21,819 nt of DNA, from IMG/VR virus record IMGVR_UViG_3300048590_001376, one strand, 5' to 3'. The first letter of the stretch is position 1; every line of letters starts with the position of its first letter. The notes below the pieces were generated by a model that saw only the letters and a list, made by a program, of their open reading frames with translations, searched no databases and was not told where the DNA came from. This document shows positions 1-17,984 of the stretch, piece by piece. The position numbers were made by a program, and so were the translations under genes. Origin of the DNA: a virus (lineage: Duplodnaviria > Heunggongvirae > Uroviricota > Caudoviricetes).

Positions 1-867
1 ATGCAAACGACAACGGTTCGCATCTCAGATTTGCAAACTCATCCCCTTCAACAGCCGACGTATGGTGACCTTGCGGCTCATGAATTTGCAGCACTGAAGG
101 CAGACATCGCCCGTCGAGGAGTCCGCTCTCCGATTCACGTCACTCGGGCCGGGATGATCATCGACGGTCATCAGCGTGTTCGCGCTTGTCGCGAGCTTGG
201 AATTGAGGAGATCAGTGCCATCATCTGCGAGGAAGAGGGCCAGCCGGAGATTGATGAGAGCTTCGTTTTGGCGAATCTCGTGCGGCGTCAGCTGGACCCT
301 GTAGCCAAAGCGAAGGCCGTTCAGATGCTCGTGGACATCGAGCGTCGACGGATCAATGACGAAGATTCTCAAGAACCCGGCGATTTGCGCGATCGCATCG
401 CCAAGCATCTTGGGGGAAACATCTCGGGACGCACGGTGGATCGCCTCTTGCAGCTGGCGCGTTTACCCGCTCCGATCCATCAGGCCGTTTCAGCAGGGCA
501 TTTGCCGATGACGAAAGCCCTGCGGCTTCATCAGTGCTCGTCAGGCCAGTTGGAAATCGTCGCCAACCGCATTTCTGCGGGTGAGTCACCGCGTACTGTC
601 GTAGATTCGGTCCTTCCGCGCAAGAAGGCCGATCGACAGGAAGCCGAAGAAACGCCAGCTGTTGCGTATGCCATGCTGGTTGACTTCCTTGCCGAGAAGC
701 TGTCGTGCTTCGAGGCTCAACCGGAATCACTGGTCGGAACGGCGGGAGATCACGAAGCAACCGCCAACGTGTTGGACCGCTCAGCGCGGTTCCTGCATGT
801 GATGCGTGATCACGAGCAGGCTGCTCGCCAGCAGGCACTGCTCGATATTCAAGAGTTGCTGAGTTGA
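1..867 (+). CDS. ParB/Srx-like N-terminal domain protein with central HTH (288 aa)
   Basis: N-terminus VRISDLQTHP; ParB box GVRSPIHV...IIDGHQRVRACRELG (GxxRxxA); ANLVRRQLDPVAKAKAV; HTH-like LRDRIAKHLGGNISGRTVDRLLQL. Confidence 0.85.
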   Translation: MQTTTVRISDLQTHPLQQPTYGDLAAHEFAALKADIARRGVRSPIHVTRAGMIIDGHQRVRACRELGIEEISAIICEEEGQPEIDESFVLANLVRRQLDPVAKAKAVQMLVDIERRRINDEDSQEPGDLRDRIAKHLGGNISGRTVDRLLQLARLPAPIHQAVSAGHLPMTKALRLHQCSSGQLEIVANRISAGESPRTVVDSVLPRKKADRQEAEETPAVAYAMLVDFLAEKLSCFEAQPESLVGTAGDHEATANVLDRSARFLHVMRDHEQAARQQALLDIQELLS

Positions 868-934: not shown

Positions 935-2464
935 GTGATGTCTTCCAATCCCCCTCAAACACGAACGATTGCCTACCACCGCAGCACCTGTGCTGTCTCG
1001 CTGGCTCCCGAGGACTTGCAGCGTCTCGGCGGGGCCATCACCGTTCCGAAACGCGTGCCGAGAGCAGATCCGCTTCATGGATACGATGTGGTTGAGGCAC
1101 AGGAACCTTGGCTGGGAGGTGATCGTGTTCCGAATCTTGGTTTGCGTGAATTCCTGGCCTATCGGGCGATCCAGCGGGGACTCCAATTACAGGAAGTGGC
1201 GACGAACCAAATTGCGCCACTTCCCGCCCCTGCGTGCCGCAATCAACTCCTTTGGCCGAGCTGGATTGATTTCGTCCACCAGTATGAACTGGGGTTGGTT
1301 CGCATCTCCAACCAGGTTGATGTGCCCCAGATGATTGCCGAACTTGTGATCGCTTTTCCAGGGCGACGCATCATGGTTCTCGGAAAGGTCGCAACACTTC
1401 GAAGCCACTTTGCCTCATTGATGCGTCTTCTCCCGGCCGAATTCCGCAAAAACCGTCGCATGGCATTGGTGCATGCCGGAAGGCCGCTGAGGATCGAAGA
1501 TGACCATGAGTTTCCTCGATTGATCCTCTGCACTCCGACGGTGGCAGCAGACCTCGAATCCGAAAAGTGCGACATTGTTGTCATGCTCGACGCATTCGAG
1601 TGTCTGCACGAGCGAATGGCGTGGCCCTTGATCCAAATGGATGGGCGGTTCCGCCTGTTTGGACTGTTGCCCGCCAGTCGTGCGCCGAAGCCCTACGAAG
1701 CGGCTCGACTCCGTGTGACGTTCGGGTTTCGACAGATTGATCTGCTTGGGAAGGGCCGTGTCCGTCGAGATACCTCTTACTCGCTGGTGTGCCAAAGCGG
1801 AGAGGCCCCGCAAGGATCAGTCCTGGAGCATCCCGTTGTCGGTGGTCGTCGCACTCGCCCGTCCATTGCCCCCGTCCGTGCGTATGTCCACCACCACTAT
1901 CGAAACAACATGATTGCGCGTCTCGCCCGGAAGCTCCGGGGCGGCCAGCGGATCGAGAATCCTCGGTACAGTGAGATCGCGCGTTGGTGCCGTCTCCAAG
2001 TTCAGCGGCCCATGAGTGTCATGATCGTTGTGGATCGGCTCGACCACGCGGTCCTCCTGCACGCGCTGCTCAACGACTGGCCGATAGTCGCTGAACCGTC
2101 AAATCTGGACGGCATCCCCGCAACTGTCTGTCGCTGGATCAATCGCCGTATCTCGCAGTGGCTGCCGTGCCAGATCGTGGTGGCTGATGCGTTCCGAAGG
2201 ACGAAGGGACACCAGGTGGATGTCGTGATCTGGGCCAGCGGCGGGTCGATGGCCCAAATCCCTGAGGAATGGCTCTACACCCGCGAGGACGCAGGCCATC
2301 CGCTGCTGATCGTCGACTTTGTTGATGACTTCGCCCCGGATGCTCGGCGATTGAGTCGAAAGCGTGCCCAAGCTCTCGAAACCCGCGACATTTTCCGGTT
2401 CGGTCAATCACCCGTACTTGGTCGCATCCGCCAGTTTGAACGCCAGATCGGAGGGACACGATGA
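935..2464 (+). CDS. Degenerate (probably ATPase-dead) superfamily-2 helicase-like protein (509 aa)
   Basis: SF2 motif order is retained but catalytic residues are lost: no GxGKT (GLVRISNQVDVP), LILCTPT (Ib-like), DIVVMLDAFE (in place of DExH), RLFGLLPA (III-like), RNNMIA, VMIVVDRLDHAVLL (IV-like), VDVVIWASGG, LLIVDFVDD. No QxxGR motif VI. Confidence 0.6.
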   Translation: MMSSNPPQTRTIAYHRSTCAVSLAPEDLQRLGGAITVPKRVPRADPLHGYDVVEAQEPWLGGDRVPNLGLREFLAYRAIQRGLQLQEVATNQIAPLPAPACRNQLLWPSWIDFVHQYELGLVRISNQVDVPQMIAELVIAFPGRRIMVLGKVATLRSHFASLMRLLPAEFRKNRRMALVHAGRPLRIEDDHEFPRLILCTPTVAADLESEKCDIVVMLDAFECLHERMAWPLIQMDGRFRLFGLLPASRAPKPYEAARLRVTFGFRQIDLLGKGRVRRDTSYSLVCQSGEAPQGSVLEHPVVGGRRTRPSIAPVRAYVHHHYRNNMIARLARKLRGGQRIENPRYSEIARWCRLQVQRPMSVMIVVDRLDHAVLLHALLNDWPIVAEPSNLDGIPATVCRWINRRISQWLPCQIVVADAFRRTKGHQVDVVIWASGGSMAQIPEEWLYTREDAGHPLLIVDFVDDFAPDARRLSRKRAQALETRDIFRFGQSPVLGRIRQFERQIGGTR

Positions 2465-3690
2465 GTATCAGTGGATCTCCGACACGCAGGTTTGCTGACC
2501 GCCACTTTCAGCGGTCGTGCGAACCACGCCGCAGGCGGGAGCCTTATCGGGTACTTAATCCGGCGGAATTCGACTTGGCCAAATTCGCCAATGCGGACAA
2601 TCTCTACGTGGCGTTCCAGCAATTGGTGGACGAGGGTGGTCACGGCGCGGGGATTGATGGCTTTCGACCCGAGCATTTTTCCGATGCGGAACTCTCTCCC
2701 ATCCTGCGGAGTGTCTCGAAGGCTTTCGAGAAAGAGGACGATCAACCGATCGCTTATCGTCCTTATCCGACTCGCCGAATGGAAATTCCCAAGTCGGCGA
2801 CCAAGGTCCGTACCTTGGCTTTGCAGCGGTTCACCGATCGAGCAGTAGCGAAAGCTCTGATGAATTGCCTAACGCCCTTCTGGGAGCGGGTGATTAGACG
2901 ACGCAGTGTCTGGCAGATTTATGCCCAGCTCGACCGCGAGATTCGCCGTCGTCGAATCTACGTGCTGGCGATCGACGACATCCAAGATTGCTTTCCGAAC
3001 GCACCTCGCGAGGAAGTCCTTTACTGGCTCTTCCGTCATATCAATAACGAGGAATTGCTCGATCTCATCGAACAAATCGTCCTTGGCCATGAAGGCCAAG
3101 ATCAATTGACCGGCTTGGATCAAGGTTCGCCGTCCAGCCCGGTCGCGGTAGACGTGTTGCTCTACCACAGACTCGACAGCGAGTTGGAAACACTGTCGAG
3201 GAACACGCCGCAGTACCGCTACGTCGATAACCTGACGTATCTGTGCCGCGACGTCCGTGAGGCTGCCAGTGTGCTCGCGATTGCGCGGGAACTTGTTGAA
3301 CGCATCGGTTTCCGACTTAAAGGAACCGACGGTGATCCACAAGACCTTCGCGATCCGAGTTACAACCGAGTGATTCTGGGATTGATCCCGACATGGCAGA
3401 ACGGCCGTCTGTCTTTCTCGATCCCCCAGAAAGCCTTCGACCATTTGGAAGAAGGTTTCCGCTTTGCGAATTCAGCCGCGAGACCCTTGGACAACGCTCT
3501 TGGGCGTTGTCGAGGCTGGCTAAATTCACTCGGACCTGCCCTCACGAACGCAGTAACCCCGGAAGTAGTCAACCGTGTCGTCGACATGGCGCGCCTGGAA
3601 GGTTTCCGAAATGTGACCCGCAAGGACATGTTTCTGACAGCCGAGAAAGCGCGCAGAGCCTGGTGCCGAGTATTGGAAGGTGCCCGATGA
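2461..3690 (+). CDS. Group-II-intron-like reverse transcriptase with YVDN active-site motif, no endonuclease domain (409 aa)
   Basis: RT0 GAGIDG; RT1/2 KVRTLALQRFTDRAVAKAL; motif A YVLAIDDIQDCF; motif B GLDQGSPSSP; motif C YRYVDNL (3220-3231 TACGTCGATAAC = YVDN); RT7 ILGL; thumb-like CRGWLNSL. Start overlaps the upstream stop (ATGA). Confidence 0.9.
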   Translation: MSISGSPTRRFADRHFQRSCEPRRRREPYRVLNPAEFDLAKFANADNLYVAFQQLVDEGGHGAGIDGFRPEHFSDAELSPILRSVSKAFEKEDDQPIAYRPYPTRRMEIPKSATKVRTLALQRFTDRAVAKALMNCLTPFWERVIRRRSVWQIYAQLDREIRRRRIYVLAIDDIQDCFPNAPREEVLYWLFRHINNEELLDLIEQIVLGHEGQDQLTGLDQGSPSSPVAVDVLLYHRLDSELETLSRNTPQYRYVDNLTYLCRDVREAASVLAIARELVERIGFRLKGTDGDPQDLRDPSYNRVILGLIPTWQNGRLSFSIPQKAFDHLEEGFRFANSAARPLDNALGRCRGWLNSLGPALTNAVTPEVVNRVVDMARLEGFRNVTRKDMFLTAEKARRAWCRVLEGAR

Positions 3691-3699
3691 ATATGTCTA

Positions 3700-4215
3700 C
3701 GGATACGACCATTGGACCTGACATCGTTTCCTCCGAGACGTTTGTTGGCATTCCTCTTACTACTCCTTCTCGGTGCTGCCGCACACCGACGCCCCTCCGT
3801 TTCCGCGAGGGAATGTGGAAGAGTTATTCCACGAGTTTTTCGATGTTCCAGCGCGAACCAACGATTCAGCAAGGGAGTGAACGTCTGATGTAAGGCAACT
3901 CAGGTTTCTGACAGTTCAGATAGCCATCCGACAGATTGCAGGGCAGTCGCTGAAGGTGCTGGATCGTTCGATTCTCCACGTGGGTGGAGCGGACAATACC
4001 AAGCTGCCGCCGAGGAGGTTCCGTTTCCACGCAGTCACCTGGAATCGGTCACCACTTCGGAGGTTGGCTCTCAACCAGCACCCGCAAACCTCGTTCACAC
4101 ACCAGCCCATAATGGGTTGGCTTCACATTCATCCGTCATCGCTGCCAGGGAGTGCTTTGATGTTGGGCGCGAAGGAAATTCGATCGTGTCTCGCAAGAGA
4201 AAGCACCAATGGACC
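3700..4215 (+). ncRNA. Candidate structured non-coding RNA downstream of the RT
   Basis: Stems found by eye: 3749-3756/3807-3815; 3770-3775/3784-3789; 3815-3820/3827-3832; 11-bp 3860-3870/3958-3968; 3907-3911/3916-3920; 3974-3979/3984-3989; 4102-4109/4113-4120; TCTC-GCAA-GAGA GNRA hairpin 4189-4200. G.U pairs and the GNRA loop favour the + strand. Boundaries are approximate. Confidence 0.5.
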
Positions 4216-4455: not shown

Positions 4456-6153
4456 ATGCGCAAGAGCAACGCCCAGATCATGAAGGCGAAGGATGCGGTC
4501 ACGCGAAAGTGTGGCCTTTACGGACGTGTCTCGACTTTGCGTCAAGCCAAGGTCGAAGAAGGTGGGTTGGACACCCAGTTCAGCTGCATGGAGAAGACGG
4601 TCGATTTCGAGAACGAGAAAGCGATCGGCGAAACATGGGAAATCGTCGACCGCTATCGGGAGGAGGGGCGGTCCGGGAAGGATCTGGAACGTCCTGAGTT
4701 CAAGCGGTTGATGGCAGACGTCCAGAGCGGTCGAATCAACACCGTGATCGTCTACAAGATCGATCGGATTACCCGCTCACTCCGCGACTTCTACACGCTT
4801 TGGGAGACGTTCGAGGAGTATGACGTCCAGTTCGTGTCGTTGTACGAGAAGTTTGACACGACAACGGCTGTCGGGCGAGCCATGCTGAAGCTCATTCTTG
4901 TCTTCGCAGAGCTTGAACGCGAACAGACGGCGGAGCGAACCGCCGCAACGATGCAGCATCGTGCCGAGCAGGGCCTGTGGAATGGCGGAGTTCGGCTGGG
5001 CTACGATCTCGATCCGAACAACAAGGGGGTATTGAAGGTCAATCCGGACGAGAAGGTCATCGTTGTGAACGATTTCTTCAAGAAGTGCCTCGAACTCGGA
5101 TCAGCAGGCAAAGTGGTCCAGCACCTGGCGAAGCAGGGGATTCGACGAAAGCAGTACACCAATCGCAACGGGAAGGTCGTCGGCGGAGGACCCTACTACA
5201 AGCAACCGGTCATGAACGTCCTCACGGACAAAGTCTATCTCGGCATGATCGTCCACAACGGCCAGGCATATCCCGGCCAGCACGAAGCGATCGTGGAGGA
5301 AGACCTGTTCATGCAGGTTCAGGATTTGATCCGGCGAAACTCCGAAACCCGCACGAATGCACTGGCTCAGGAAGAACACGTTTTCCTGCTGCAAGGACTC
5401 GCCCGATGCGGGAAGTGCGGCAGTTTCATGACTCCCAAATGGAGTTCCGGACGAGGTGGCGTGCGGAACTTCTACTACTGCTGCACCCGGCAGTCGCACA
5501 GCATGGGGACCGAATGCACGACTCCCTACGTGCCCGCCGGAACGATTGAGAATTTCGTGGTTGAACAGATCAGCGCGTGGGCCAAGGACCGTGACGAGAT
5601 CGAGCGGGCGGTTCAGGCGGCCTGCAAGTTTCGGGAGATTGAAGTCACCAACCTGACGCAGGAGCTGAGTGCAATCCGTGCCCGCTTACGCGAGACGCAG
5701 GCCGGATTGAGCCAACTGGTGACCGCGATTCAATCAGGAAAGAGCTTCCGAGCTGTGGAAGAACGGATGGAGGCTCTCGAACAGGACCGGACTGCGCTCG
5801 AAGAACGCATCAACCGCCTGGAACTGGAACGGAGCAGCAAAGAGCAGGAGACGCTGTCGTCGGACGTGATCGCCGAGACCTATTGCGATTTCCCGTTCAT
5901 CGTCAGCCGCTTGCGGCAGGAGGGCAACCTTCACGGCCTGAAAGACCTGCTCGCCTGCTATATCGCGGCGATTGACATCCATCAGGAAGAGGAGGACCCG
6001 AGCAGCGGCCACATGAACATCATGCTGTTCGAGGAGGAGCTTCCAGGCTGGAAACCCCATTTGACGCAACTCAATGGGGCGCAAGAAAAAACGCTCACGT
6101 TCCAGCCGTTAACCGGCTGGAACTGTGAGCGTGTGGAAAGGCTCCCCGACTAG
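4456..6153 (+). CDS. Large serine recombinase (resolvase + recombinase + zinc-ribbon + coiled-coil domains, 565 aa)
   Basis: Catalytic YGRVST; EEGRSGKDLERPEFKRLM; VYKIDRITRS; FAELEREQTAERT; Zn ribbon CGKCG...YYCC...C; coiled coil; GAAGGAG RBS upstream. Confidence 0.97.
   Translation: MRKSNAQIMKAKDAVTRKCGLYGRVSTLRQAKVEEGGLDTQFSCMEKTVDFENEKAIGETWEIVDRYREEGRSGKDLERPEFKRLMADVQSGRINTVIVYKIDRITRSLRDFYTLWETFEEYDVQFVSLYEKFDTTTAVGRAMLKLILVFAELEREQTAERTAATMQHRAEQGLWNGGVRLGYDLDPNNKGVLKVNPDEKVIVVNDFFKKCLELGSAGKVVQHLAKQGIRRKQYTNRNGKVVGGGPYYKQPVMNVLTDKVYLGMIVHNGQAYPGQHEAIVEEDLFMQVQDLIRRNSETRTNALAQEEHVFLLQGLARCGKCGSFMTPKWSSGRGGVRNFYYCCTRQSHSMGTECTTPYVPAGTIENFVVEQISAWAKDRDEIERAVQAACKFREIEVTNLTQELSAIRARLRETQAGLSQLVTAIQSGKSFRAVEERMEALEQDRTALEERINRLELERSSKEQETLSSDVIAETYCDFPFIVSRLRQEGNLHGLKDLLACYIAAIDIHQEEEDPSSGHMNIMLFEEELPGWKPHLTQLNGAQEKTLTFQPLTGWNCERVERLPD
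6086..6132 (-). terminator. Intrinsic terminator-like hairpin (18-bp stem, 1-nt bulge, 5-nt loop) followed by a T-run on the minus strand
   Basis: ACGCTCAC-GTTCCAGCCG (6091-6108), loop TTAAC, CGGCTGGAAC-T-GTGAGCGT (6114-6132); A-run 6086-6091 reads TTTTTT on the minus strand; begins 7 nt beyond the tRNA-like 3' end. Confidence 0.75.
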
Positions 6154-6898: not shown

Positions 6899-7729
6899 AT
6901 GACACTGGGCGACTTTGTGGCGTTGTACGCCAGCCAACGTGATATCGAGGCGGGAACCGTCGAACAGTTGCGGTACGCCGTCTTGTCGTTCGACCGATGG
7001 CTGAAGCGCGCTGCGACGCTACATGACTTATCGGATAAAAATGTCAACAACTGGATTATTGCCCGCATTGAGGCGGGCATTGCGCGAAAGACCGTCAAGG
7101 GTCAGCGGGGGGCAATCCTTAGCCTCTGGAGAGCTGCCACCGAGGAAGGGATGCTCGACACTGAGCCGAGCAAGATCAGGCCCGTCAAAGTGCCGATCGT
7201 CATGCCGGTCGCCTGGCAGAAGTCTCAGATCAAGTCGCTCTTGAAGGCTGCCGAAGCGGCGCCGGGCAGCTTTGCTTGCGGCATTAAGCGATCGAGCTAT
7301 CTGACTGCGTGGTTGCTCGTGGGCTACTACAGCGGATTGCGGCCGGGTGATCTGCTTGGCCTGACGAGCGACATGATCGATGACGACAGCCAGCTCGTGA
7401 AGACCCAGAAGAAGACTGGCTGGCCGGTTGTTCGGCCGTTGCCATCTGACGCCATGGCGGCCCTGGCCGCGATCAACTTTCGCGATCGTTCGCAGATTTT
7501 CCCTGTCCCTAAAAAGACGCTCGACGACTGGTGGAAGTGGCTCAAGCGCATTGCCGGCGTGCCGGGCTCGCCGAAGTGGATGCGGCGATCTGGCGCTACG
7601 CACTGCGAAGCGGAGCACCCCGGCTCGGCGATGCAGTTTCTGGGCCACAAAACCGCCGGATTGGCGTACAAACACTACGTCGATCCCAAGCAGCTCTGCC
7701 ACAAGCCGCCCTGTCCGCCGCCGCTGTAG
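6899..7729 (+). CDS. Tyrosine recombinase/integrase lacking an arm-binding domain (276 aa)
   Basis: Core-binding domain at the N-terminus; catalytic set SGLR(R), KTQKKT(K), KWMRRS (K-x-x-R for H-x-x-R), LGH, KHY(Y); RBS GAGAGGGA. Confidence 0.92.
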   Translation: MTLGDFVALYASQRDIEAGTVEQLRYAVLSFDRWLKRAATLHDLSDKNVNNWIIARIEAGIARKTVKGQRGAILSLWRAATEEGMLDTEPSKIRPVKVPIVMPVAWQKSQIKSLLKAAEAAPGSFACGIKRSSYLTAWLLVGYYSGLRPGDLLGLTSDMIDDDSQLVKTQKKTGWPVVRPLPSDAMAALAAINFRDRSQIFPVPKKTLDDWWKWLKRIAGVPGSPKWMRRSGATHCEAEHPGSAMQFLGHKTAGLAYKHYVDPKQLCHKPPCPPPL

Positions 7730-8256: not shown

Positions 8257-8498
8257 CGAGCCCCCCGCATCCACTTCTCGACGAACTCGCGGTATCGGCC
8301 AAGGCATTCGGGGTGAATCAAATTCTCAGCGAGTGCGTAGATGACCTTGCTGCCGTTGTCGACCGATTCGCCATGCACGATCGCGCCACGCATGCCAAGC
8401 AGTCGCATTTCTCGCCACTTGCCAAACACCATGGCGCGGACGACATAGCAACCCATTGGCTCGCGCTGACGAAACCGCCTTGGCAACCAGAGCATCAT
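8253..8498 (-). CDS. Hypothetical protein (81 aa), last gene of the minus-strand operon
   Basis: ATG at 8498 overlaps the upstream stop (ATGA); start moved from the ORF-track 8543. Confidence 0.55.
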   Translation of the reverse strand: MMLWLPRRFRQREPMGCYVVRAMVFGKWREMRLLGMRGAIVHGESVDNGSKVIYALAENLIHPECLGRYREFVEKWMRGAR

Positions 8499-9256
8499 CG
8501 AAAGCCCTCCATGTCTTTGACCCATTCCATTGCCAGCCGACAATCCATGACGCCGCCAGGATTAGCCAGGCTGGAGTGCTTCTCGCCGACATGCTGCACG
8601 AAGCTCGGCGAGTGATACCACATGGCATACTGATTCTCCGACAGAAACTTCGCGAACCAGAAATCAGCCGTAACGACGCTCGCACCGGAATCCGGCGGGG
8701 CCTGCAACAGGTGTTCACCGATCTCGCGCGGAATAACATAGCATTGAGCGCCGAGCTTCATCTGCTTGATGCCGCGATGCAAATGCCAGCCGCGACGCTC
8801 GGCCATTTGGCGGCAAGTGAATAGGTTCACGACTTCCTTAGCCTCCAAGACCGGCCTTTGCCGCTCCAGCCACGATCGCAAATTGGCGGCAATCGCAATA
8901 TCGTCCTGCGCCACCAGTAGGTGCGTGGCGCGTGGCGACATGTCGATCAAGTAGCCGATCGTCGATAGCAGATTCGGCCAGGGGCCGGCAGGGCCGTCGT
9001 TGAAGTGCAGCGGGTAGCCGCGGCATGTCGTCGGCAGGCTGTCGAGCGTGTCGGGCGGGTCGAGTACGGTGTCGCCGGATAGTCCCTCCTCGTCCGCGAC
9101 GGCTGTTTCCAGCAATTCGTCAGAAAAATGCCCCGCCTCGGCGCAGATTGTCAGCTCGGGCCAGCCGGCAGCCTTGATATTACTGATCGTTTCCCACAGG
9201 TACGACGGCTCGCGCGGCGCCGTCGTGACGCCCACTGCCCAAGTTATAGCTCGCAT
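8495..9256 (-). CDS. GT-A fold glycosyltransferase-like protein (253 aa)
   Basis: Start MRAITWAVGVTTAPRE with RBS GGGAGAG; LLVAQDD (DxD-like); GAQCYVIPR; HSPSFVQHVG. Confidence 0.7.
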   Translation of the reverse strand: MRAITWAVGVTTAPREPSYLWETISNIKAAGWPELTICAEAGHFSDELLETAVADEEGLSGDTVLDPPDTLDSLPTTCRGYPLHFNDGPAGPWPNLLSTIGYLIDMSPRATHLLVAQDDIAIAANLRSWLERQRPVLEAKEVVNLFTCRQMAERRGWHLHRGIKQMKLGAQCYVIPREIGEHLLQAPPDSGASVVTADFWFAKFLSENQYAMWYHSPSFVQHVGEKHSSLANPGGVMDCRLAMEWVKDMEGFR

Positions 9257-9954
9257 GGTGCTTCTCTCCCTTTCAAAGTGTGGCGAATACGGTACAGCGC
9301 CGGCAGCTCGATCGGCTCGCCATCCGTGCCGAGATACTTGCGAAAAGCAGGGTCTTCGATGGTGCGCTGCCACGACTCGGCTGGCTCCTGATAGACCGAG
9401 TGCGGCAAGTAGCCTTTGGTGCGAGCTACGCTGCCGCGCACGATCTGTAGACCGCCGATCGCACGGCTATGACTGACGAGCTCGAAGTCATCGGGGTTGA
9501 TTTCGTGGATCGCTGGTTCGACCGCGGCCTCGATGTAGCGATCGCCGATGGCGTGCGACTTATGCTTGTGGACAAGTCGCGGATAAACCAGCGGGCCATC
9601 GACGACCAGCAATTGAGGCAGTGCCGCCAAGCAGCCATTGTGGAACACGTAGTCGCAATCGGTCAGCCAGACCCAATCGGCGAACGTGCTCTTGCAGGCT
9701 ATGTTGCGTCCGATTGCCCGCCGCAGAAGATGCCGCCGGTGCATGGGTAATGGATTGACCGCCAGATGCGGAATCGCTTCGGCCGCCAGATAAAACCAAT
9801 TGACCGTCCGTTGAGTTGCCGCATCCTCGGTCGGGCAATAGCAGATCGTCACGGTCGTTTCGACGAATGGCGGCGCGTGTTGGATGAGGCTCGACAATTG
9901 GTACGTGAGCAGCCGGCTGTAGTGCCAGCAGTGGACGATGATTTCCAGTTTCAC
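9244..9954 (-). CDS. GT2-like glycosyltransferase (236 aa)
   Basis: GTG start overlaps the upstream TGA (GTGA); RAIGRNIA...ADWVWLTDCDY DxD motif. Confidence 0.7.
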   Translation of the reverse strand: MKLEIIVHCWHYSRLLTYQLSSLIQHAPPFVETTVTICYCPTEDAATQRTVNWFYLAAEAIPHLAVNPLPMHRRHLLRRAIGRNIACKSTFADWVWLTDCDYVFHNGCLAALPQLLVVDGPLVYPRLVHKHKSHAIGDRYIEAAVEPAIHEINPDDFELVSHSRAIGGLQIVRGSVARTKGYLPHSVYQEPAESWQRTIEDPAFRKYLGTDGEPIELPALYRIRHTLKGREAPCEL

Positions 9955-10760
9955 AGCAGCCTCGCTAGCGCTGTATCGCCCGCCGGCTGCCATCGCTTCA
10001 CGCGAGCGATATTGCGGCGGACGCATTCGTCGTATTCCTTTTTCCACAGTGGATGCGCCCAGCGGCCAATGTGCTTGCCGCCGTGCAAATGAATCACCTT
10101 CGGGCAATGCGTCTCAACCCCATACCGACACGACAGGTTCCAGCGATCGGCCGCGATAACGTGATGGTGCTTACGGACCAAAAGCTGCATGGCCAGCTCG
10201 TCGGCCAGGATGCAGCCTGCCGCGTCGCCGGCAGCGGTCAGCCGCTCCCATTCAGGCAGGATGGGGTGCCCGTGGTACCAGGCCACGACGCCGGTATTGA
10301 TGGCGACATGCGGATCACCGAGCGACCTGTGAAGCAATTGCTTGACTTCCATGCCATTGCACTCAACCGCAGACCATTGCCGGAGTCGCTTGACGATTAA
10401 GGGCGTTTCGGTCGACCAATTTGAGAACCGTGTCACAACCAGCGAGCCAAACCCAAAGATCGGCGACAGGTTGTCGGCGACGATCGTGTCGGAGTCCAGG
10501 AATAGAGTTTTAGAGAACGGCGTACTGCGCCAGAGCATCGCCTTGGTGACATAAGGTTTGCCGGCCGAGACAATGCGAATCTTCTCGCAGTCGAGCGCGC
10601 TACAGATCGCGTCTACTGTCTTGGCGGTGCTGCGATTGTGCCGCGAAGTCGAATCCAGCACGGCGATCGGCCCGGACCAGAACTTGCGGAGTGAATAGAT
10701 GGAAACCAGCATCCGCACCAGATGCGTGTTGCCATCATTAAAATAAATGACTCCATTCAT
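9951..10760 (-). CDS. GT8-like nucleotide-diphospho-sugar transferase (269 aa)
   Basis: SIYSLRK; TPFSKTLFLDSDT; INTGVV; DELAMQ; RWN; VIHLHGGK. Confidence 0.8.
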   Translation of the reverse strand: MNGVIYFNDGNTHLVRMLVSIYSLRKFWSGPIAVLDSTSRHNRSTAKTVDAICSALDCEKIRIVSAGKPYVTKAMLWRSTPFSKTLFLDSDTIVADNLSPIFGFGSLVVTRFSNWSTETPLIVKRLRQWSAVECNGMEVKQLLHRSLGDPHVAINTGVVAWYHGHPILPEWERLTAAGDAAGCILADELAMQLLVRKHHHVIAADRWNLSCRYGVETHCPKVIHLHGGKHIGRWAHPLWKKEYDECVRRNIARVKRWQPAGDTALARLL

Positions 10761-10783
10761 TTAGATACTTTTATACTGGACGT

Positions 10784-11635
10784 TCACTGGTGGACTTCCG
10801 GGATCGACTCTCCCCGGTACTCGATCACGCGGGCGCCGTGCGGCAAGTCGTCGCCAGGGCTCCACGACTCCCAGCTTGACCTGCAATTCACGTACATCTG
10901 CCGGTTGATGCCATGCTGCTCTTTCCCCTCGCCGCGATGCTCGTAATAGCGGTTAGTCGCCATGCGCTCGCGGGGCGAACGGGCAAACCCTAAGTGCACG
11001 CACTGAGGGCCGGAGAATGGCGACTTAAACATGCGCTTGGTGGGCGCGTAGCCCGGCAGCTCTGGCCAGTTGTGATTTTTCGTGTAGCGTAAACCAGGAC
11101 ACCAGCGAAACACGCGGACGTGCTCGACGCTCCAGTAGCCGCCGACCACTTCATGTCGAAACAGTGGTTCGTGGGCAATGCTCGGCGGGCGCCAGATGTG
11201 CCGCTGATGCAGACGAAAACAACGATGCTCGCGGTCCAGATCGACAAGCTCGTTGATGCGCAGTTGATCTTCGCGGCTGTAAAACTCATCTTGATCGATT
11301 ACTATGAACATATCGGGCCGTACTTCATCGGCAATCTCCATGTATCTATTGCGTCCCTCGCACTTTCCTTGTGCTGGGTCTGTGTGTCGCATCCATCCGT
11401 GATGAATGACGGTGACTCTTTCGTCGCAAGTAGACAGTCTATCTAAGATTTCTGTAGTTGCGTCAATCGACAGGCCATGATGCGACACCATGCTCGGCGA
11501 CGCCGCGGCGTAGGCGTGGTCGGCGGCCTCAACGAAAATCCATGCGGCCAGTCCAGGCCAATTGGCATGCTGTGCGTAGTTCTTTTCGATGAACTCCGCT
11601 TCATTCAGGCAGAGCGTGACGAGGGCGACTTTCAT
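10784..11635 (-). CDS. GT2-like glycosyltransferase (283 aa)
   Basis: KVALVTLCLNEAEFIE; SIDATTEIL; FIVIDQDEFY; VHLGF. Confidence 0.75.
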   Translation of the reverse strand: MKVALVTLCLNEAEFIEKNYAQHANWPGLAAWIFVEAADHAYAAASPSMVSHHGLSIDATTEILDRLSTCDERVTVIHHGWMRHTDPAQGKCEGRNRYMEIADEVRPDMFIVIDQDEFYSREDQLRINELVDLDREHRCFRLHQRHIWRPPSIAHEPLFRHEVVGGYWSVEHVRVFRWCPGLRYTKNHNWPELPGYAPTKRMFKSPFSGPQCVHLGFARSPRERMATNRYYEHRGEGKEQHGINRQMYVNCRSSWESWSPGDDLPHGARVIEYRGESIPEVHQ

Positions 11636-12480
11636 TGGTGAACCCCTTTGTCCCCCAGGCAGATGACCGGCTTGCCGGAAACGCGGGCGATTTCCGGGGC
11701 CTGGTCAGAGGAGCTTTCGATGAACAGGGTCGCGCCACAATCGCGATACTGCTCGCCTTTGTAGCGGCCGTAATTGCATTGCCGACGGCGATCGGCCGCC
11801 GTGGGGTAGCTGCTCAGGATCAGTCGGCCATACTTGACGCCATGGCGCTTAAGCCAGGATTCGGTTTGCTCTCGCCAGCGCTCCAGTCGGCAACTAATCA
11901 GGGCGCCGACTGGCACTCGTGGCAAATGCAAAGGCACGGCGTTTTCAATGGCGGCGACATATTCCGGCCCATCGTTGTCAAAGACGGGCGAGTCCACGCA
12001 CAGCACGCCGTCGATGTCGAGCATGGCATCGAATAGTTCTGAATGCTGCATCAGATTCCACTCGAAGTACCGCTGCGGCGAGATGTTCTTGTGGTACAGA
12101 TCGACATCCAACGCCACGTCGATTCCAGGGTCGCGGTAAACCGCCGCGAAAGTAAAGCTCAAACCATTGATGGAGCTATTAATGCAAGTCTTCACCGCCC
12201 TGAGCGACGACCCGCGATAGATCGAGTCATCGACAACCAGGACGCGATATTGCGACTTGACTGGCAGTGGGGATAGGCGATTTCCTGATTTTGGAAAGTG
12301 CCCGTCGCATAGCGAATAAATGTCAGTCAGTGGCAAATGCAAATGCGTCGCCAGCATCGCGGCCGGGATCATGCCGCTGCGCGGTACGCCAGCGATAATG
12401 TCGATGCCGCGCGGCAGCTTGGGCGCGAAGGCCAGGATGTCGCTGTAGAGCTGCTGATAGGTAACGTAAGTGACACTCAC
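11632..12480 (-). CDS. Phosphoribosyltransferase-fold domain fused to a HAD-like phosphatase domain (282 aa)
   Basis: IAGVPRSGMIPAAMLA and RVLVVDDSIYRGSSL (PRPP-binding loop); C-terminal MLDIDGVLC (HAD motif I); LFIESS. Confidence 0.8.
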   Translation of the reverse strand: MSVTYVTYQQLYSDILAFAPKLPRGIDIIAGVPRSGMIPAAMLATHLHLPLTDIYSLCDGHFPKSGNRLSPLPVKSQYRVLVVDDSIYRGSSLRAVKTCINSSINGLSFTFAAVYRDPGIDVALDVDLYHKNISPQRYFEWNLMQHSELFDAMLDIDGVLCVDSPVFDNDGPEYVAAIENAVPLHLPRVPVGALISCRLERWREQTESWLKRHGVKYGRLILSSYPTAADRRRQCNYGRYKGEQYRDCGATLFIESSSDQAPEIARVSGKPVICLGDKGVHQ

Positions 12481-13001
12481 TTGACACCCCGCATTCCCAG
12501 GCTAATTGGACCATGCGCGTGACCGCGCTCGCGGCCAGTCAGGCGATGCACTTCACGAAAGCCGGCGGCCTCGAAGCATCGCCGCAAGTGCCTCTCGTCA
12601 AAGCAGGCGCGGTGCCAGTTCGGATCGGGGCCGTAGGTGAAGAGTCGTCCGTTCACCCATGTCATCACGTCGCCATCGTCATTGTGCTTTCGCCAGTTGT
12701 CGGCAGGCTCGCCGTCGAGATAGGCGCTGACGATCACGGCGAAGTTGGGCACCCAGATTTCCAGCGGAGCGCAGGGTTTCAAGATGCGATGTACTTCGCG
12801 CAGTGCATCGATCGTGCGGAACCAGGGAACGTGTTCGAGGACGTGGCTGCCGTACACCAGATCGAACGTCTCGTCATTGAACGGCAGGCGATCCTCGCCC
12901 CAGTTGGCCACGAAAACGATATGCGGCCCAGGTACGCAATCGAGCGTGATCCAGTCCGGGCCGAGCTTGTTGGGGCCTGGTCCAATTTCCAGTCGCTTCA
13001 T
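12477..13001 (-). CDS. Class I SAM-dependent methyltransferase (type 11-like, 174 aa)
   Basis: MKRLEIGPGP; LPFNDETFDLVYGSHVLEHV; EVHRILKP. ATG at 13001 overlaps the HNH stop (ATGA). Confidence 0.85.
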   Translation of the reverse strand: MKRLEIGPGPNKLGPDWITLDCVPGPHIVFVANWGEDRLPFNDETFDLVYGSHVLEHVPWFRTIDALREVHRILKPCAPLEIWVPNFAVIVSAYLDGEPADNWRKHNDDGDVMTWVNGRLFTYGPDPNWHRACFDERHLRRCFEAAGFREVHRLTGRERGHAHGPISLGMRGVK

Positions 13002-13573
13002 GCCGCAGCCACCCTTTTGCGACTGATTTTTGTAAGCCACGACCAATTTCTTCCCGACATAATCGAATCAACGGAGCCACGCGACACATGAAGTTCAGCA
13101 GCAATGGACGAGCGGCTCTCCCCATCATTGCAACGTCTAACTATTTCCAATACTCGGCATTCATTTAGCCTTGCACTACCGTTCTCACTTCCACGCAAAA
13201 CCACACGATTAAAACGTCCGTGGTCTTTTTTGTCTTGCTCGTTGTCTGATTGCGTTCCCCAAGCAAGGTTGTCCGGCATGTTGTTGGCTCTATTTCCATC
13301 AATATGCCGACACTGCAACCCTTGTGGCCTCGGTCCATGGAACGCTGTTGCGATAATCCAATTGACCAGTACGTGACATCGCTCGCCTTTGTCATTCAAG
13401 ATATCAGTTTCGATGTATCCACTAACTTTGTTTCTGTGACCAACGATTTGCCTTAAGTTATCTCGCTTCCGTCGCATTGGCCCTTTAGTCCAACGTGTCC
13501 ATAGTGTCCCATCGCCTCTAGCGAAGTACCCTGCAAATCCTGAAACTTCACGAATGTCTGCTTCGCTAAACAT
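12998..13573 (-). CDS. HNH homing-type endonuclease with C-terminal HTH (191 aa)
   Basis: IIATAFHGPRPQGLQCRHIDGNRANNMPDNLAWGTQSDNEQD; C-terminal GESRSSIAAELHVSRGSVDSI; lower GC than flanks (26/60 GC at 13141-13200 vs 36/60 at 12661-12720). Confidence 0.9.
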   Translation of the reverse strand: MFSEADIREVSGFAGYFARGDGTLWTRWTKGPMRRKRDNLRQIVGHRNKVSGYIETDILNDKGERCHVLVNWIIATAFHGPRPQGLQCRHIDGNRANNMPDNLAWGTQSDNEQDKKDHGRFNRVVLRGSENGSARLNECRVLEIVRRCNDGESRSSIAAELHVSRGSVDSIMSGRNWSWLTKISRKRVAAA

Positions 13574-14573
13574 TGATCGCCGACATCCAGTTACTTACGT
13601 GCACTTCTGGTCTATGCTTATCTGACTCACGGTGATTGCATTGCGTCAACAGCGACATCGCTCTTGCCAGCGAATCAATGTCACCCAGCGGCGCGACAGA
13701 AACGGAGCTGGATACTTCAGATTCTCTTAGGTAACTGCCTGTTGCAGACGCTATGACGGGCCGCCCGCGAGCTACCGCTTCTGCAACTGTCAAATCCAGT
13801 CCTTGGCTGTACGCCGTAGGAACAATCAACGCAGAATGCTCGTCATAGACTCCCGGCATGAGCTGCCGCGGCGACTTTGAGACGACATCCAACGGAATGC
13901 CAGCCTTACTGGCTGCTTTCTTGGCCACCGCGAACAGCCGCTCTCCATGTCCAGAAATCGCCGCGCAAAGCAGTCGCGGCGATTTAGGGGGATCGACGAT
14001 CGGCTTGGCGAAAAATCCAGGTGCGATCGGGTTGTAAACCAACCGGGCGTGCGGAATGCCGAGCAAATCCTTGAGCATCCAGTGCTCGTGTCGAGAGATT
14101 CCTATCACGGCGTCGGCTTGCATGAGCGATTCGCGCTCATGCACCATGCCAACGAAATCGAACTGCGGAGCCGGACCCTGGCCGAGCTTGTAGAGATTCC
14201 ACTTGGTTAAAGCCGAGCCCCAGCAGAATCCGTGCAGCGTGATGGCGACTTTCTTGACGCCGCGCGGTCGGCCAGCCCACCACAAGCGATCCGTGTCAAA
14301 ACTGTCCAGGTGGATGATGTCGGGCCGGATTGATTCGCACGCTTCCCGGCAGCGACTGGCGAATTCGTCGGAGTAAGCCAGTGGCTTGCAGTCCAGGTGG
14401 TGGACATGCACGAACGCATCCATCACGTCTGCTTCGCCGCGGTGTGCTCCAGTCGTGAGAATGTGAACTTCGTGCCCTGCCTTGGCCAGCGCATGGGCGC
14501 GATCTTGCGCGACGAAACCCATTCCGCCAGGGCGGTGCGTCGGATAAATGCGGCTTACCGAAACAATCTTCAT
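13566..14573 (-). CDS. GT4-family (GT-B fold) glycosyltransferase (335 aa)
   Basis: MKIVSVSRIYP...GGM; LAKAGHEVHILT; PDIIHL; IGIS; VYNPI; QGLDLTVAEAVARGRPVIAS; GDIDSLARA. Confidence 0.9.
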   Translation of the reverse strand: MKIVSVSRIYPTHRPGGMGFVAQDRAHALAKAGHEVHILTTGAHRGEADVMDAFVHVHHLDCKPLAYSDEFASRCREACESIRPDIIHLDSFDTDRLWWAGRPRGVKKVAITLHGFCWGSALTKWNLYKLGQGPAPQFDFVGMVHERESLMQADAVIGISRHEHWMLKDLLGIPHARLVYNPIAPGFFAKPIVDPPKSPRLLCAAISGHGERLFAVAKKAASKAGIPLDVVSKSPRQLMPGVYDEHSALIVPTAYSQGLDLTVAEAVARGRPVIASATGSYLRESEVSSSVSVAPLGDIDSLARAMSLLTQCNHRESDKHRPEVHVSNWMSAINV

Positions 14574-15835
14574 GCTGGCTTCCTGAGTTCATAAGCCACG
14601 GCATTTGCATCTTCCTGCCGGCACTTTCCGCCAATCGCGGTGGCGTGTTCGTATTGAAAAAAATACGGATCGCCAGCTAGCTGACAGCCGCTTGGCTGAA
14701 CGATCAATCGCTGATGGTCGACCCAGGATAGCACTCGCTGTGGATCGGGCCTGGCGATCTGGTCGAAGCTCTCGCGCGATGAATGACTGGATACGATCAA
14801 TAATCGGCCGCCGGGCCTGATGCGACGGGCTAGTGCAGCGGCAATCGCTGGTATCTCGGTTTCTCCAGGCAAATTGTGCTGAATCGCCCAGGTGGCTGTC
14901 ACAACGTCGTAGTAGCCCTCGCCGATCGAATCGAGGCTGGAGGAGCAATAGGCGGTCAATTCGACACCCAGCCTGCCTGCGACGGCATGCTGCTTTCCCG
15001 GACTCGTTGAATCGCGGTCCACTGTAGAAACAGTGCACCCGCGCAGCGCCATTTGAGAAGGCATCTCTCCGTCGCGAGCCCCGAAATCAAGCACCCTGTC
15101 ACCGATCTTGATTCGCTCCAGCACCCAGCGTTGAGCGAAGTAATGCGCGGCAGTCAGCCGCTTCAAATTGAGCCGCGACCGCTCCAGCCAGGGCTGCACT
15201 AAGTCGATCGGCATCAAGTGCGGCAGCAACAGTTCCGTGATTGCCGCCAAGCGATCAAGTCTGGCGTGACCCCAGGTGCAATGCAGTGTTACCACCAGCG
15301 GGCATTGAGTGTCGCACCACAGCGGAACTTCTTCAGTCAACGGCTCGGTGTGATCATAGAGCGGCCGGAACGCCGGCAGGTGAACGACATGCCCATCTAC
15401 GGCAACTGGATAGTTTCCATGCTGGTGATGCTCGTGATCGAAACCGCCGAAGAAGTAGCCTTCGTGATCGGCGGCAGTCGCCAAGTTCCAGTCTCGCACA
15501 GTGGCGGGAGTGTACTTATTGAAGGGGGCGATATACGACCGGCATTTTGCCGCCGTGCGGAAGCGATGGATTGCATCGGCCATTTGCTGGCGAGTGACGT
15601 TCGCGCCTCGCGCATGATCGCAGCCATGGACCGATAGCTCCTCGCGGCCAGCGAGATTCTCTTGGAGCCATTTCAACTCGCGATCCCCAATGCAGCTTGG
15701 GATGGCCCCGTAATAGACCGGCAAGCCCGACAGGCCGGCAGCCTTGCGCCAGGCGGCGAAGTATTCCAGGCCGTAGTCGGGGCTGTGATCCGGGAGCCAG
15801 CCTACGTCATCGACACGCAAGATAAAGCGGGCCAT
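14570..15835 (-). CDS. Fusion: polysaccharide-deacetylase-like (NodB-type) N-domain + class I SAM methyltransferase C-domain (421 aa)
   Basis: FILRVDDV, LSVHGCDH, YIAPFN, VTLH; then GDRVLDFGARDG, YDVVTATWAIQH, IRPGGRLLI. Confidence 0.75.
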   Translation of the reverse strand: MARFILRVDDVGWLPDHSPDYGLEYFAAWRKAAGLSGLPVYYGAIPSCIGDRELKWLQENLAGREELSVHGCDHARGANVTRQQMADAIHRFRTAAKCRSYIAPFNKYTPATVRDWNLATAADHEGYFFGGFDHEHHQHGNYPVAVDGHVVHLPAFRPLYDHTEPLTEEVPLWCDTQCPLVVTLHCTWGHARLDRLAAITELLLPHLMPIDLVQPWLERSRLNLKRLTAAHYFAQRWVLERIKIGDRVLDFGARDGEMPSQMALRGCTVSTVDRDSTSPGKQHAVAGRLGVELTAYCSSSLDSIGEGYYDVVTATWAIQHNLPGETEIPAIAAALARRIRPGGRLLIVSSHSSRESFDQIARPDPQRVLSWVDHQRLIVQPSGCQLAGDPYFFQYEHATAIGGKCRQEDANAVAYELRKPA

Positions 15836-15837
15836 GC

Positions 15838-16602
15838 CTACCTCGAAACGAGTGATTGCCAGCCGATTTGATCGGCCCAGTGAATGAATTCGCTGCGCAC
15901 TTGCTTGAATAAAGGCATGCTCGACAAAGCGTCGTTGTCGGGAAGCTCCATGCCGTTGATCCAGGTCGACCGATCCAGGTTTTCAGGCAAGATGTACGTC
16001 GGCAGATTGAGGGCGCGCTGCAACCCCAGGCAAAGAGACAGGTCGTCGTGGCGAGCGACTTCGATGCGAGCCTGCTCGCCGTATGCGTCGATCAAGTCCC
16101 AGTTGAACTGAATGACGTGATGCAAGTCGCGCGTGCGGAAAAAGTGCGCGCGGCAGCCCATGTCGACCCGAATGGGCTCTCGCTGGAGCGGCACGTTACG
16201 GGCCTTGTAATGCCAGGGCGGGACACGATGACCGTGATACTCAAAGATGCGGCCGATCTGGCAGAGCGTGGAGAATTGCCCTCGCAGCTTTTTGGCGGTG
16301 TCCTGGAAAGTTTCGAGCATCCGCCAGCCGGGTGACAGGTCGTCATCCAGAAACAGGCAATACTCCGCATAACTGGCCAGCGCGGGGATAAACCGGCAGG
16401 GCGGCCCGTAGTTCGGCCGCTCGACGCGAAAGTAAGCATCGAACCGGCAAGCGTCACAGGCCGGCAGCTCGTATCCACTCTCGGCGTTGTCGATGCAAGC
16501 GACTGCGATCGGTGCCACTGACTGCCGCTTGATCGCGTACAAAATCTGCGCGATGTTTTGCGGCCTGCGCCAGTTCGTGAGGACGATCATGCAGTCACTC
16601 AT
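15838..16602 (-). CDS. GT2-like glycosyltransferase (254 aa)
   Basis: IVLTNWRRPQNI; ACIDNA; YCLFLDDDL; HDDLSLC. Confidence 0.75.
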   Translation of the reverse strand: MSDCMIVLTNWRRPQNIAQILYAIKRQSVAPIAVACIDNAESGYELPACDACRFDAYFRVERPNYGPPCRFIPALASYAEYCLFLDDDLSPGWRMLETFQDTAKKLRGQFSTLCQIGRIFEYHGHRVPPWHYKARNVPLQREPIRVDMGCRAHFFRTRDLHHVIQFNWDLIDAYGEQARIEVARHDDLSLCLGLQRALNLPTYILPENLDRSTWINGMELPDNDALSSMPLFKQVRSEFIHWADQIGWQSLVSR

Positions 16603-17234
16603 TGATTCAGCTCCTGAACGCCGTAGAACATGGCGCTGTCATCGGACGTGCGCCAGCGAGCGCCGTCCTCGACGCGCCAGACACGCTCCATCGTCTTGTA
16701 GTCCGGCGGCTGCTCGAATGGCGTAACGCAAGAGGGCTCGAACAGGCAGATGCGGTTGTTCGGTTGCGCGGCAAACGTGCCGTCATCCAGCGCGATCAGG
16801 TGATGACACTTCCAGCCAGCATTCCCAGCGGATTCAGCGGCGGGCGAACCCCAGTAGTCAACCGTAAACATGTAGACGCCGCCGATCACTTTGCGATCGG
16901 CCAGGCTGACGCGGCAGCGCATGCCAGACAGATAGGCGTACTCGACCACAGCGACATTCGCCGAGAAGCAATCCCAGAGCTGCCGGCGCCAAGGGTCATC
17001 ATGCGGCACGCTGGCCACACGGTCGCGGCGGTGCGCCAGCGCGTGAATCGGCAGTCGGCCGATATGGGCTCCGTTGTTCAATAGGACGTTGAAGCCCAGC
17101 GCTCGGCCTGGAATGGACGTGATCGAGTGACAGATGCCGGGCGCGTACTCGCCCATGCCCTTCTGGAAGTTGTAAAGGAACTCACTTCGCACCAGCACTT
17201 CGAACCGCGGGCAGTCGGCGTTTAGCTCCGGCAT
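16599..17234 (-). CDS. Hypothetical protein of a type recalled from environmental phages (211 aa)
   Basis: Motifs SIPGRALGF, RLPIHAL, QLWDCFS, YMFTVDY, KCHHLIALDDGTFAAQPNNR. Phage association is from memory and unverified. Confidence 0.65.
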   Translation of the reverse strand: MPELNADCPRFEVLVRSEFLYNFQKGMGEYAPGICHSITSIPGRALGFNVLLNNGAHIGRLPIHALAHRRDRVASVPHDDPWRRQLWDCFSANVAVVEYAYLSGMRCRVSLADRKVIGGVYMFTVDYWGSPAAESAGNAGWKCHHLIALDDGTFAAQPNNRICLFEPSCVTPFEQPPDYKTMERVWRVEDGARWRTSDDSAMFYGVQELNQ

Positions 17235-17959
17235 GTCAACGCCTCCTGTGCGGCTCGCTCCAGCTTGAATGGCGGAACGTGCTCCCAGCCGTTTCCGCGA
17301 GCGCTGATCGGCATGAAGTGCGCTCCAGTGCGGACGGCACAGAACCAGAGAAACGTGTCGTGCGAATAGATGGGCGGCGGGTGCTTGGCGGCGATCGCAG
17401 CCATGCTACGAGTCCAGTTGGTCTGCCCGAAGAACATCCAGGACGTGATTCGCTTGTGCATGACGCGATCGCCATGGCGAGCAAACCCCGGATCAACCAA
17501 CTCTTCACCCAATTTGATGCGGTTAGCCCAGGCTTCAAGCTGCTCGATGGCGTTGGCAGGCTTGGTGTATCCCCAGCGCGGCGCGATGAAAGAATAGTTC
17601 CGCTTGAACCACCAGTCGGAGTACCACTGCGACGGCTCGCGGGCGATGACATCCGTGTCGAGCTTGAGATAGTACGGAGTCTGGATGTAGTCGGCCGCCG
17701 CCACGAATGACCACAGCATCTTGGCTCGCTGGTTTGGAAACGAACCAAACCTGCGCGGCGGCCAGCTCGCAAACGTCACATGCGGATGATCGATGCCGAT
17801 GATGTCGAGCGTGCTGGGTCCACAACTTGACGTATCAAGCATGACCAGCAGCGGATGCTCCATAATCTCCGGCCGGTGCGCTCGCCACGTCGGCCAGGAC
17901 AATTGAAGTTCGCGCGCGTGTTCGGCGTCCACTGCCAGAATGAGAGTCCAGTCCTGCAT
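17222..17959 (-). CDS. GT-A fold glycosyltransferase-like protein (245 aa)
   Basis: YYLKLDTDV DxD motif; HDTFLW; GGAG RBS. Confidence 0.65.
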   Translation of the reverse strand: MQDWTLILAVDAEHARELQLSWPTWRAHRPEIMEHPLLVMLDTSSCGPSTLDIIGIDHPHVTFASWPPRRFGSFPNQRAKMLWSFVAAADYIQTPYYLKLDTDVIAREPSQWYSDWWFKRNYSFIAPRWGYTKPANAIEQLEAWANRIKLGEELVDPGFARHGDRVMHKRITSWMFFGQTNWTRSMAAIAAKHPPPIYSHDTFLWFCAVRTGAHFMPISARGNGWEHVPPFKLERAAQEALTCRS

Positions 17960-17984
17960 GGGCTCCGTGCCCCTCGATCGACTG

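Follow-up and report, generated by a model that had tools for sequence, protein, structure and literature searches.

A G2L5-class reverse transcriptase with Asp-Asn in motif C, its predicted helicase-fold partner and a conserved RNA element at its 3' side

Can a reverse transcriptase (RT) work with Asp-Asn in motif C, where the catalytic pair Asp-Asp is usual? The question is raised by an RT gene lying in the 21,819-nt stretch of DNA analysed here (referred to as the window), and it extends beyond a single locus, as G2L5, the class to which this gene can be assigned, was in 2008 the only bacterial RT class to be singled out for its incomplete catalytic triad. The same locus bears on the role of a domesticated group II intron RT that is paired with what looks like a dead helicase. 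The window provides no new motif. Nevertheless, the restriction of one motif C position to two residues, a partner of helicase-like fold and a candidate cognate RNA together make the module amenable to expression and assay. The features of the module and its surroundings are collected in Table 1.

The unusual motif C was first pointed out in an earlier note made from the sequence alone, and the bases and the reading frame are as claimed there. Motifs A and B are intact, with D172/D173 and QGSP in place, and the open reading frame (ORF) is uninterrupted. The shortening between RT2 and RT3 described in that note is true of the subclade of the window RT, from which approximately eight residues are absent; the stretch in question is the 'syGfrpgrs' of the wider family and of the GsI-IIC RT. 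The C-terminus had been called short and thumb-like, and only the latter part of this description stands. The thumb (domain X) is complete, with a length of around 110 aa, the profile alignment to the GsI-IIC RT spans both the thumb and its GW motif, and the protein carries no DNA-binding or endonuclease domain. The residue five positions past D173, F178, occupies the steric-gate position and is conserved in at least 90% of an alignment of 103 family members, in which D173 is invariant. The structure predicted with AF2 (pLDDT 93) matches 6ar1 in Foldseek with a TM score of 0.64 over 369 columns, so that the GsI-IIC RT is the top PDB match by fold as well as by profile.

Table 1. Positions of the RT module, its sequence motifs and the neighbouring genes in the window
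Feature	Position	Strand	Remarks
ParB/Srx-like HTH protein (P0003)	1..867	+	ParB_N 1.2e-4 (below cut-off); TIGR00180 1e-11
Partner gene (P0002)	935..2464	+	509 aa; predicted SF2 helicase fold with N-terminal domain, like T4 UvsW / XPB
RT gene	2461..3690	+	409 aa, uninterrupted ORF; Pfam RVT_1 5.6e-11
Motif A 'LAIDDIQDCF', D172-D173	2974..2979	+	D173 is the catalytic Asp
Motif B Q221-G222-S223-P224 (QGSP)	3121..3132	+	Q221 and G222 invariant (103-sequence alignment)
Motif C Y254-V255-D256-N257	3220..3231	+	TAC GTC GAT AAC in frame
Motif D L286-K287	3316..3321	+	K287 (3319-3321) at the general-acid lysine position; conserved in at least 90%
Structured RNA element	3770..3871	+	~100 nt, three hairpins; covariance models and RNAalifold
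Hairpin 1	3773-3784	+	GTGC-TGCC-GCAC; elsewhere GCGC/GCGC, GTGCGC/GCGCAC
A/C-rich linker	3785-3792	+	after hairpin 1; A+C 83% in the loci compared
Hairpin 2	3793-3811	+	stem sequence varies between loci
Hairpin 3	3815-3832	+	followed by T-run; variants TGGAA/TTCCA, CGGGA/TCCCG, TGGGA/TCCCA
Conserved GCGAACC	3853-3859	+	across loci GGCGAGCC or GCGAACC, ~20 nt past hairpin 3
Large serine recombinase	4456-6153		Resolvase, Recombinase and Zn-ribbon domains
Tyrosine recombinase-like ORF (weak)	6899-7729		adjoins the module in the window only

HMMER, run exhaustively over 1.84 billion cluster representatives, returned 206 proteins at E<=1e-30, and the occupancy of single columns was counted in a joint alignment of 177 sequences. 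Column 257 holds Asn in 161 of 175 sequences and Asp in the remaining 14/175, with no third residue, and column 256 is Asp in 175/175. Among the motif A columns, D173 is present in 174/174 and D172 in 147/177. A word-indexed search gave 30 homologues with 40–100% identity, and all of those covering the motif C column read RY[VA]DN. The asparagine is kept in relatives down to about 28% identity. In planctomycete genomic loci, motif C takes the form Y/F-V-D-N in 18 of 18 cases, and all genomic matches belong to Planctomycetota. A comparison of the window RT with the metagenomic homologue L019 (77% identical; 404 codons, dS ~0.7) yielded dN/dS of 0.19–0.22, indicating purifying selection.

These results bear on the two explanations that had been put forward for the asparagine, a lineage-specific active site, with altered chemistry such as short or untemplated synthesis, priming or mere RNA binding as a proposal, or a single G>A lesion, for which an alignment of homologues and dN/dS of the RT had been named as checks. 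The alignment is dominated by Asn, with Asp as the sole alternative, and the RT is under purifying selection; both outcomes, together with the uniform motif in the 18 loci, speak for the lineage-specific site. AAC is one transition away from GAC, and a private mutation or sequencing error of the window copy could have arisen in this way, but the prevalence of Asn among the relatives, its presence in every locus from other genomes and an intact, selected ORF leave that reading with practically no credence. The lesion is refuted because close homologues do not carry YxDD. The residue N257 is the native, selected state of the family and no mutation of the window copy.

The 14 sequences with Asp-Asp are scattered over a tree built with the motif C columns left out; 12 D/N changes are needed to account for them, and at least nine are forced by well-supported branches. 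Since only Asn and Asp are found at position 257 and the switches between them number at least 9–12, the site is constrained to two isosteric residues that replace each other repeatedly, as would be predicted for a ligand of metal or water. Other elements of the active site are similarly stable. In the alignment of 103 sequences, with a mean identity of 27%, K111, R117, D173, F178, Q221, G222, D256, K287 and G307 are invariant or nearly so; G307 is the primer-grip residue, and the set serves dNTP and metal binding and catalysis. An additional Asp at position 172 was considered as compensation for the lost one. D172 accompanies 87% of the DN rows vs 50% of the DD rows, yet 20 DN rows do without it, and the statistics of this trend ignore phylogeny and multiple testing, hence it was not relied on.

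The Asp-Asn motif has a history in the literature. Simon and Zimmerly (2008; PMC2602772) defined G2L5 from Planctomyces (Gimesia) maris and Blastopirellula marina, and characterised it by "DD to DN" in RT domain 5, an N-terminal extension of ~500 aa, a retained domain X motif and the absence of intron RNA. The original class comprised three sequences (references gi 149173121, 149176144 and 87308561; PMC2602772), and the DD to DN change was taken as loss of polymerase activity (PMC2602772). Papers after 2008 merely mention G2L5, and no functional study of it was found in the literature searched. Because the DN change was published for G2L5 in 2008, the motif in the window is a published family trait.

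Several lines of evidence place the window RT close to group II intron RTs. The profile of the 103 family members finds the GsI-IIC RT as its best match in PDB (4e-55), with an alignment that extends into the thumb, and the maturase motif of domain X is kept at G352-W353 ('rGWi' vs 'GWI(N)YF' in the thumbs of the GsI-IIC and E. rectale RTs), while Pfam GIIM gave no match to the window RT at E<=0.1. The best NCBIfam match, TIGR04416 (group II RT), reaches 90 bits with a cut-off of 300, and a score below the equivalog cut-off is expected of a non-intron relative. PADLOC assigns the generic RT model (3e-26) and ranks RT_UG17 second (4e-13, 46.9 bits). Neither a group II intron RNA nor any other Rfam family was detected in the window at E<=1, nor an Rfam intron family in seven related loci at the gathering score.

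Judged against the published class traits, the window RT matches G2L5, with which it shares the group II-like RT, the lack of intron RNA, DN in motif C, the domain X motif and planctomycete hosts. The two differ in architecture and in the size of the known family. A module of ~500 aa is fused to the RT in the published class, whereas the window RT has no N-terminal extension and the homologous 509-aa module is encoded by a separate upstream gene; the original three sequences compare with at least 206 clusters here. The nearest stand-in for the G2L5 references is a Gimesia sp. locus (L018), which encodes a fused protein, 30% identical to the window RT and reading RYVDNL. The YxDN trait is thus known already, and the window holds a split-architecture member of the class. 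Relative to the literature searched, the restriction of position 257 to Asn and Asp with repeated switching is new, and so are the predicted helicase fold and the dead motifs of the partner, the equivalence of split and fused forms and the conserved 3' RNA; neither the helicase fold of the module nor the RNA element is mentioned in the literature searched.

The partner gene ends in a TGA that overlaps the ATG of the RT gene (ATGA, 2461-2464), and the two genes are translationally coupled. The partner protein had no match in Pfam, PADLOC or NCBIfam, and its sequence profile found nothing in PDB at E<=10; it was identified by fold comparison alone. Its AF2 model (pLDDT 87, pTM 0.86) matches XPB in Foldseek at 4e-11, and VIA-align superimposes it on T4 UvsW with Z scores of 16.4 (250 residues) and 16.1 (400 residues). 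A Walker A motif (GxGKT) is absent in 25/25 members of the partner family, and at the place of motif II most of the 25 read L-D-A, with DExx in none of them. By the usual motif signatures the partner, which lacks both, cannot act as an ATPase, and judging from the predicted model it is helicase-like in fold only.

In 14 of the 18 loci, a homologue of the partner immediately precedes the RT. Among the others, the partner is fragmentary in L001 and L004, and L010 is cut by the contig end. In L018 the module is fused N-terminally to an RT of the RY[AV]DNL type (928 aa). The same fusion is present in P0105, P0112, P0177 and P0182 (921–941 aa). An HMM of the split partners, aligned over almost the whole length of the model, matches these fused proteins with E values of 1e-37 to 1e-49. 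Since the same module is fused in other members, the window holds the published fusion in its split form.

The RT gene is followed by a conserved RNA element. Six loci share a motif, TGCTGCCGCACAC with at most one mismatch, at a distance of +41 to +89 nt from the stop codon of the RT; a search of 363 kb on both strands gave a single further match. Covariance models, R1 built from three sequences and R2 rebuilt from 15, match 17 loci with E values from 1e-21 to 2e-3, in every case on the plus strand and shortly past the 3' end of the RT gene. In the 15-sequence alignment, which was fitted to the model so that the pairing counts lean towards structure, 94.8% of cells pair vs 76% in shuffles. Compensatory changes were noted in 15 of 17 pairs, none of 500 shuffles reached the observed values, slid pairing partners gave only 31–58% pairing, and RNAalifold returned the identical three helices. 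MAFFT alignments misplace hairpin 2, which is resolved by realignment to the covariance model; the differing stems of this hairpin are plain in the raw sequences, and the G-U pairs point to a transcript of the plus strand. A pyrimidine-rich tract, read by eye across loci, precedes hairpin 1 on its 5' side. In the window, hairpin 3 together with its T-run scores terminator-like. A complete 6.6-Mb genome matches the RNA model at its two RT loci only, with no solo or truncated copies, and three fused-type loci gave no match to it. The element corresponds to no Rfam family, and no description of it was found in the literature searched. A 68-aa ORF covering the element (3687-3893) was rejected as a gene, as it differs from L019 by a 1-nt indel and mostly non-synonymous changes and the spacing from the RT stop to hairpin 1 differs modulo 3 from locus to locus.

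Further observations concern the flanks of the element. A purine-rich, Shine-Dalgarno-like motif (AAGGGAG, AGGAGG; ~3880-3895 in the window) recurs 20–30 nt past the GCGAGCC block, often with a start codon next and a stop within a few codons. Alternatively, it might pair with the pyrimidine-rich stretch preceding hairpin 1 and so close the element as a whole. In two copies from one MAG (L009:9822-10022 and L008:2968-3180), a tandem array of ~25 units of 8 nt (GGGTCTTA or GTCTCAAG), G/T-rich in the coding strand, reaches from the last RT codons to the RNA element. Downstream of the element, positions 4098-4155 of the window are ~80% identical to L019 amid diverged sequence, and include 24 identical bases at ~4131-4154 (TCCGTCATCGCTGCCAGGGAGTGC); an ORF of L019 begins there, and in the window the serine recombinase gene starts at 4456.

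The genes around the module vary. Homologues of the ParB/Srx-like protein adjoin it in 5 of 18 loci, being frequent but not constant, and HTH proteins of the MerR or XRE type recur upstream in other loci. The serine recombinase was dismissed as a component of the module, as none of the 18 loci has a homologue beside the RT. Two recombinases beside the module in the window only suggest, from gene order, that the module may sit there at the edge of an integrated element. The minus strand of the window at 8495-21819 carries a sugar-modification cluster with GT4 and GT9 glycosyltransferases, several methyltransferases, a PfkB kinase and a cytidylyltransferase (heptose-type activation), and a phosphoribosyltransferase-like protein; an HNH endonuclease with an HTH is encoded within this region (12998-13573). 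Two genomes contain two copies of the module each, with ~89% DNA identity. Some copies are decaying: only fragments of the partner remain in L004 (9443-9994) and L001 (5041-5157), and the RT is spread over two frames in L012 (9887-11309). In L004, the RT is intact and the RNA element is kept despite the fragmentary partner. About eight common gene families lie downstream of the RT in one genome (L002:12228-21043) and upstream in the other (L007:697-6967), an exchange to be expected of an element that is circularly permuted or has integrated differently. In the complete genome, a tRNA gene is located 2.5 kb downstream of an RT copy (L006:13615-13688) and is a candidate integration site. Carriage by phages or plasmids was considered and rejected: no family members were found in IMG/VR contigs, and the plasmid matches are ordinary ltrA genes with 26% identity.

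How may such an RT work? With the dNTP- and metal-binding residues invariant or nearly so, and position 257 admitting only Asn and Asp, we lean towards a polymerase that is still active, though with its metal site altered, rather than a dead RNA-binding scaffold. The RT would still act as a nucleotidyl transferase, its catalytic metals held by D256 and the motif A Asp, and N257 would keep the carbonyl ligand at the cost of one negative charge. Such a change probably affects the preference or affinity for the metal (e.g., Mn2+ dependence), the rate or the processivity, without abolishing catalysis; an altered metal dependence is therefore what we would on the whole expect, perhaps with slow or short synthesis. 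The association of the genes suggests that the RT acts together with the ATPase-dead UvsW/XPB-like partner. The three-hairpin RNA at its 3' side, associated in the same manner, is a putative cognate binding site of the RT and possibly a template. Defence, mobile-element maintenance and repair are candidate roles of the module.

Polymerases with Asn at this place are not without precedent. The L polymerases of non-segmented negative-strand RNA viruses have GDN. The RTs of the nematode Cer/Belpaoviridae retroelements read YVDN (PMC554778, PMC9094657), and in the birnavirus polymerase, where the motif is ADN, Asn occupies the corresponding position and the nearby ion is still bound (PMC3394715). 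The second motif C Asp links catalytic ion A to a non-catalytic one, and Mn2+ rescues mutants of the poliovirus polymerase and HIV RT at this residue (PMC3394715). Retroviral RTs are inactivated by mutation of either Asp of motif C (PMC554778), which counts against an active RT here.

It is this intolerance of retroviral RTs, along with a partner that is itself inactivated, that keeps under consideration a pseudo-enzyme in which the DD to DN change marks the loss of the polymerase, leaving the RT as a maturase-like RNA-binding scaffold that works with the inactivated partner, for example in an RNA-sensing or regulatory role while bound to the hairpins at the 3' side. The suggestion was made for G2L5 in 2008 (PMC2602772), and it would suit the conserved thumb/X domain with its maturase-type GW, the structured and conserved RNA adjoining the gene, and the partner family lacking Walker A and DExx throughout. 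As the partner has lost its own enzymatic motifs, the module as a whole could be non-catalytic, and the conserved aspartates could serve metal-dependent binding of RNA or nucleotides without chemistry. However, a scaffold needs neither invariant D173, D256, Q221, R117 and K287 nor a steric-gate F178, and it does not need a position limited to Asn and Asp with repeated switches between them. The residue limits at 257 combined with the conserved core are hard to square with mere RNA binding, and Asn does occur at the corresponding position of active polymerases. On balance, we regard the loss of polymerase activity as unlikely, though still deserving serious weight.

Two further readings start from the RNA. 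The hairpins might be remnants of domains IV-VI of a mobile group II intron with a strongly reduced ribozyme: of the families described so far, group II intron RTs come nearest to this RT, two genomes carry two copies each and some copies are decaying. Against it, the hairpins have only 4–7 bp and include no domain V-like helix, Rfam finds nothing in the window (E<=1) or in the seven loci (gathering score), the RNA model occurs in the complete 6.6-Mb genome only at the two RT loci, and no possible intron could include the partner gene; we consider a degenerate intron highly improbable. The RT, the apparently dead helicase-fold partner and the 3' RNA might constitute a planctomycete ribonucleoprotein retro-system not described so far and specialised in limited DNA synthesis, a speculation to which we assign a low probability. 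Such a system might produce short or repeated cDNA from the A/C-rich linker, with hairpin 1 as the template boundary (cf. telomerase and DRT10), and the 8-nt G/T-rich arrays of L008/L009 could be a trace of its products. The telomerase-like A-B-A' direct repeats by which DRT10 templates are defined show no excess in the linker: the test gave 42 vs 40.2+/-2.8 in shuffles matched for composition, with 1533 of 5000 shuffles scoring at least as high (p ~0.3).

Several known systems resemble the module of the window in part. The RTs of Belpaoviridae (Cer7-13, Atlas virus) and the birnavirus polymerase (ADN) share Asn in place of the second motif C Asp and their lineages evidently replicate; these polymerases are unrelated to the window RT and the likeness is confined to one position. 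DRT10/UG17 (formerly G2L3), a telomerase-like defence RT, also combines an RT with a dedicated structured RNA. Its template immediately follows a stable stem-loop on the 3' side, and the window has an A/C-rich single-stranded linker after hairpin 1. DRT10 differs from the window RT in its YVDD motif, its SLATT partner and the place of its ncRNA, which precedes the genes, whereas the RNA of the window is 3' of the RT. Membership in UG17/DRT10 was rejected, since the 46.9-bit match, compared with 90 bits for the group II type, covers the generic RT core only and there is no SLATT protein. The G2L4 RT of Pseudomonas aeruginosa is a distant relative that is matched by the family profile at 4e-21 and by fold. 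Unlike the window family, it keeps both aspartates and has neither a helicase-like partner nor an associated RNA. Both are free-standing group II-like RTs with a thumb and no intron. G2L4 is a domesticated group II intron-like RT that takes part in double-strand break repair, and its motif C, too, carries a family-specific change (YIDD), which in G2L4 is tied to a changed activity.
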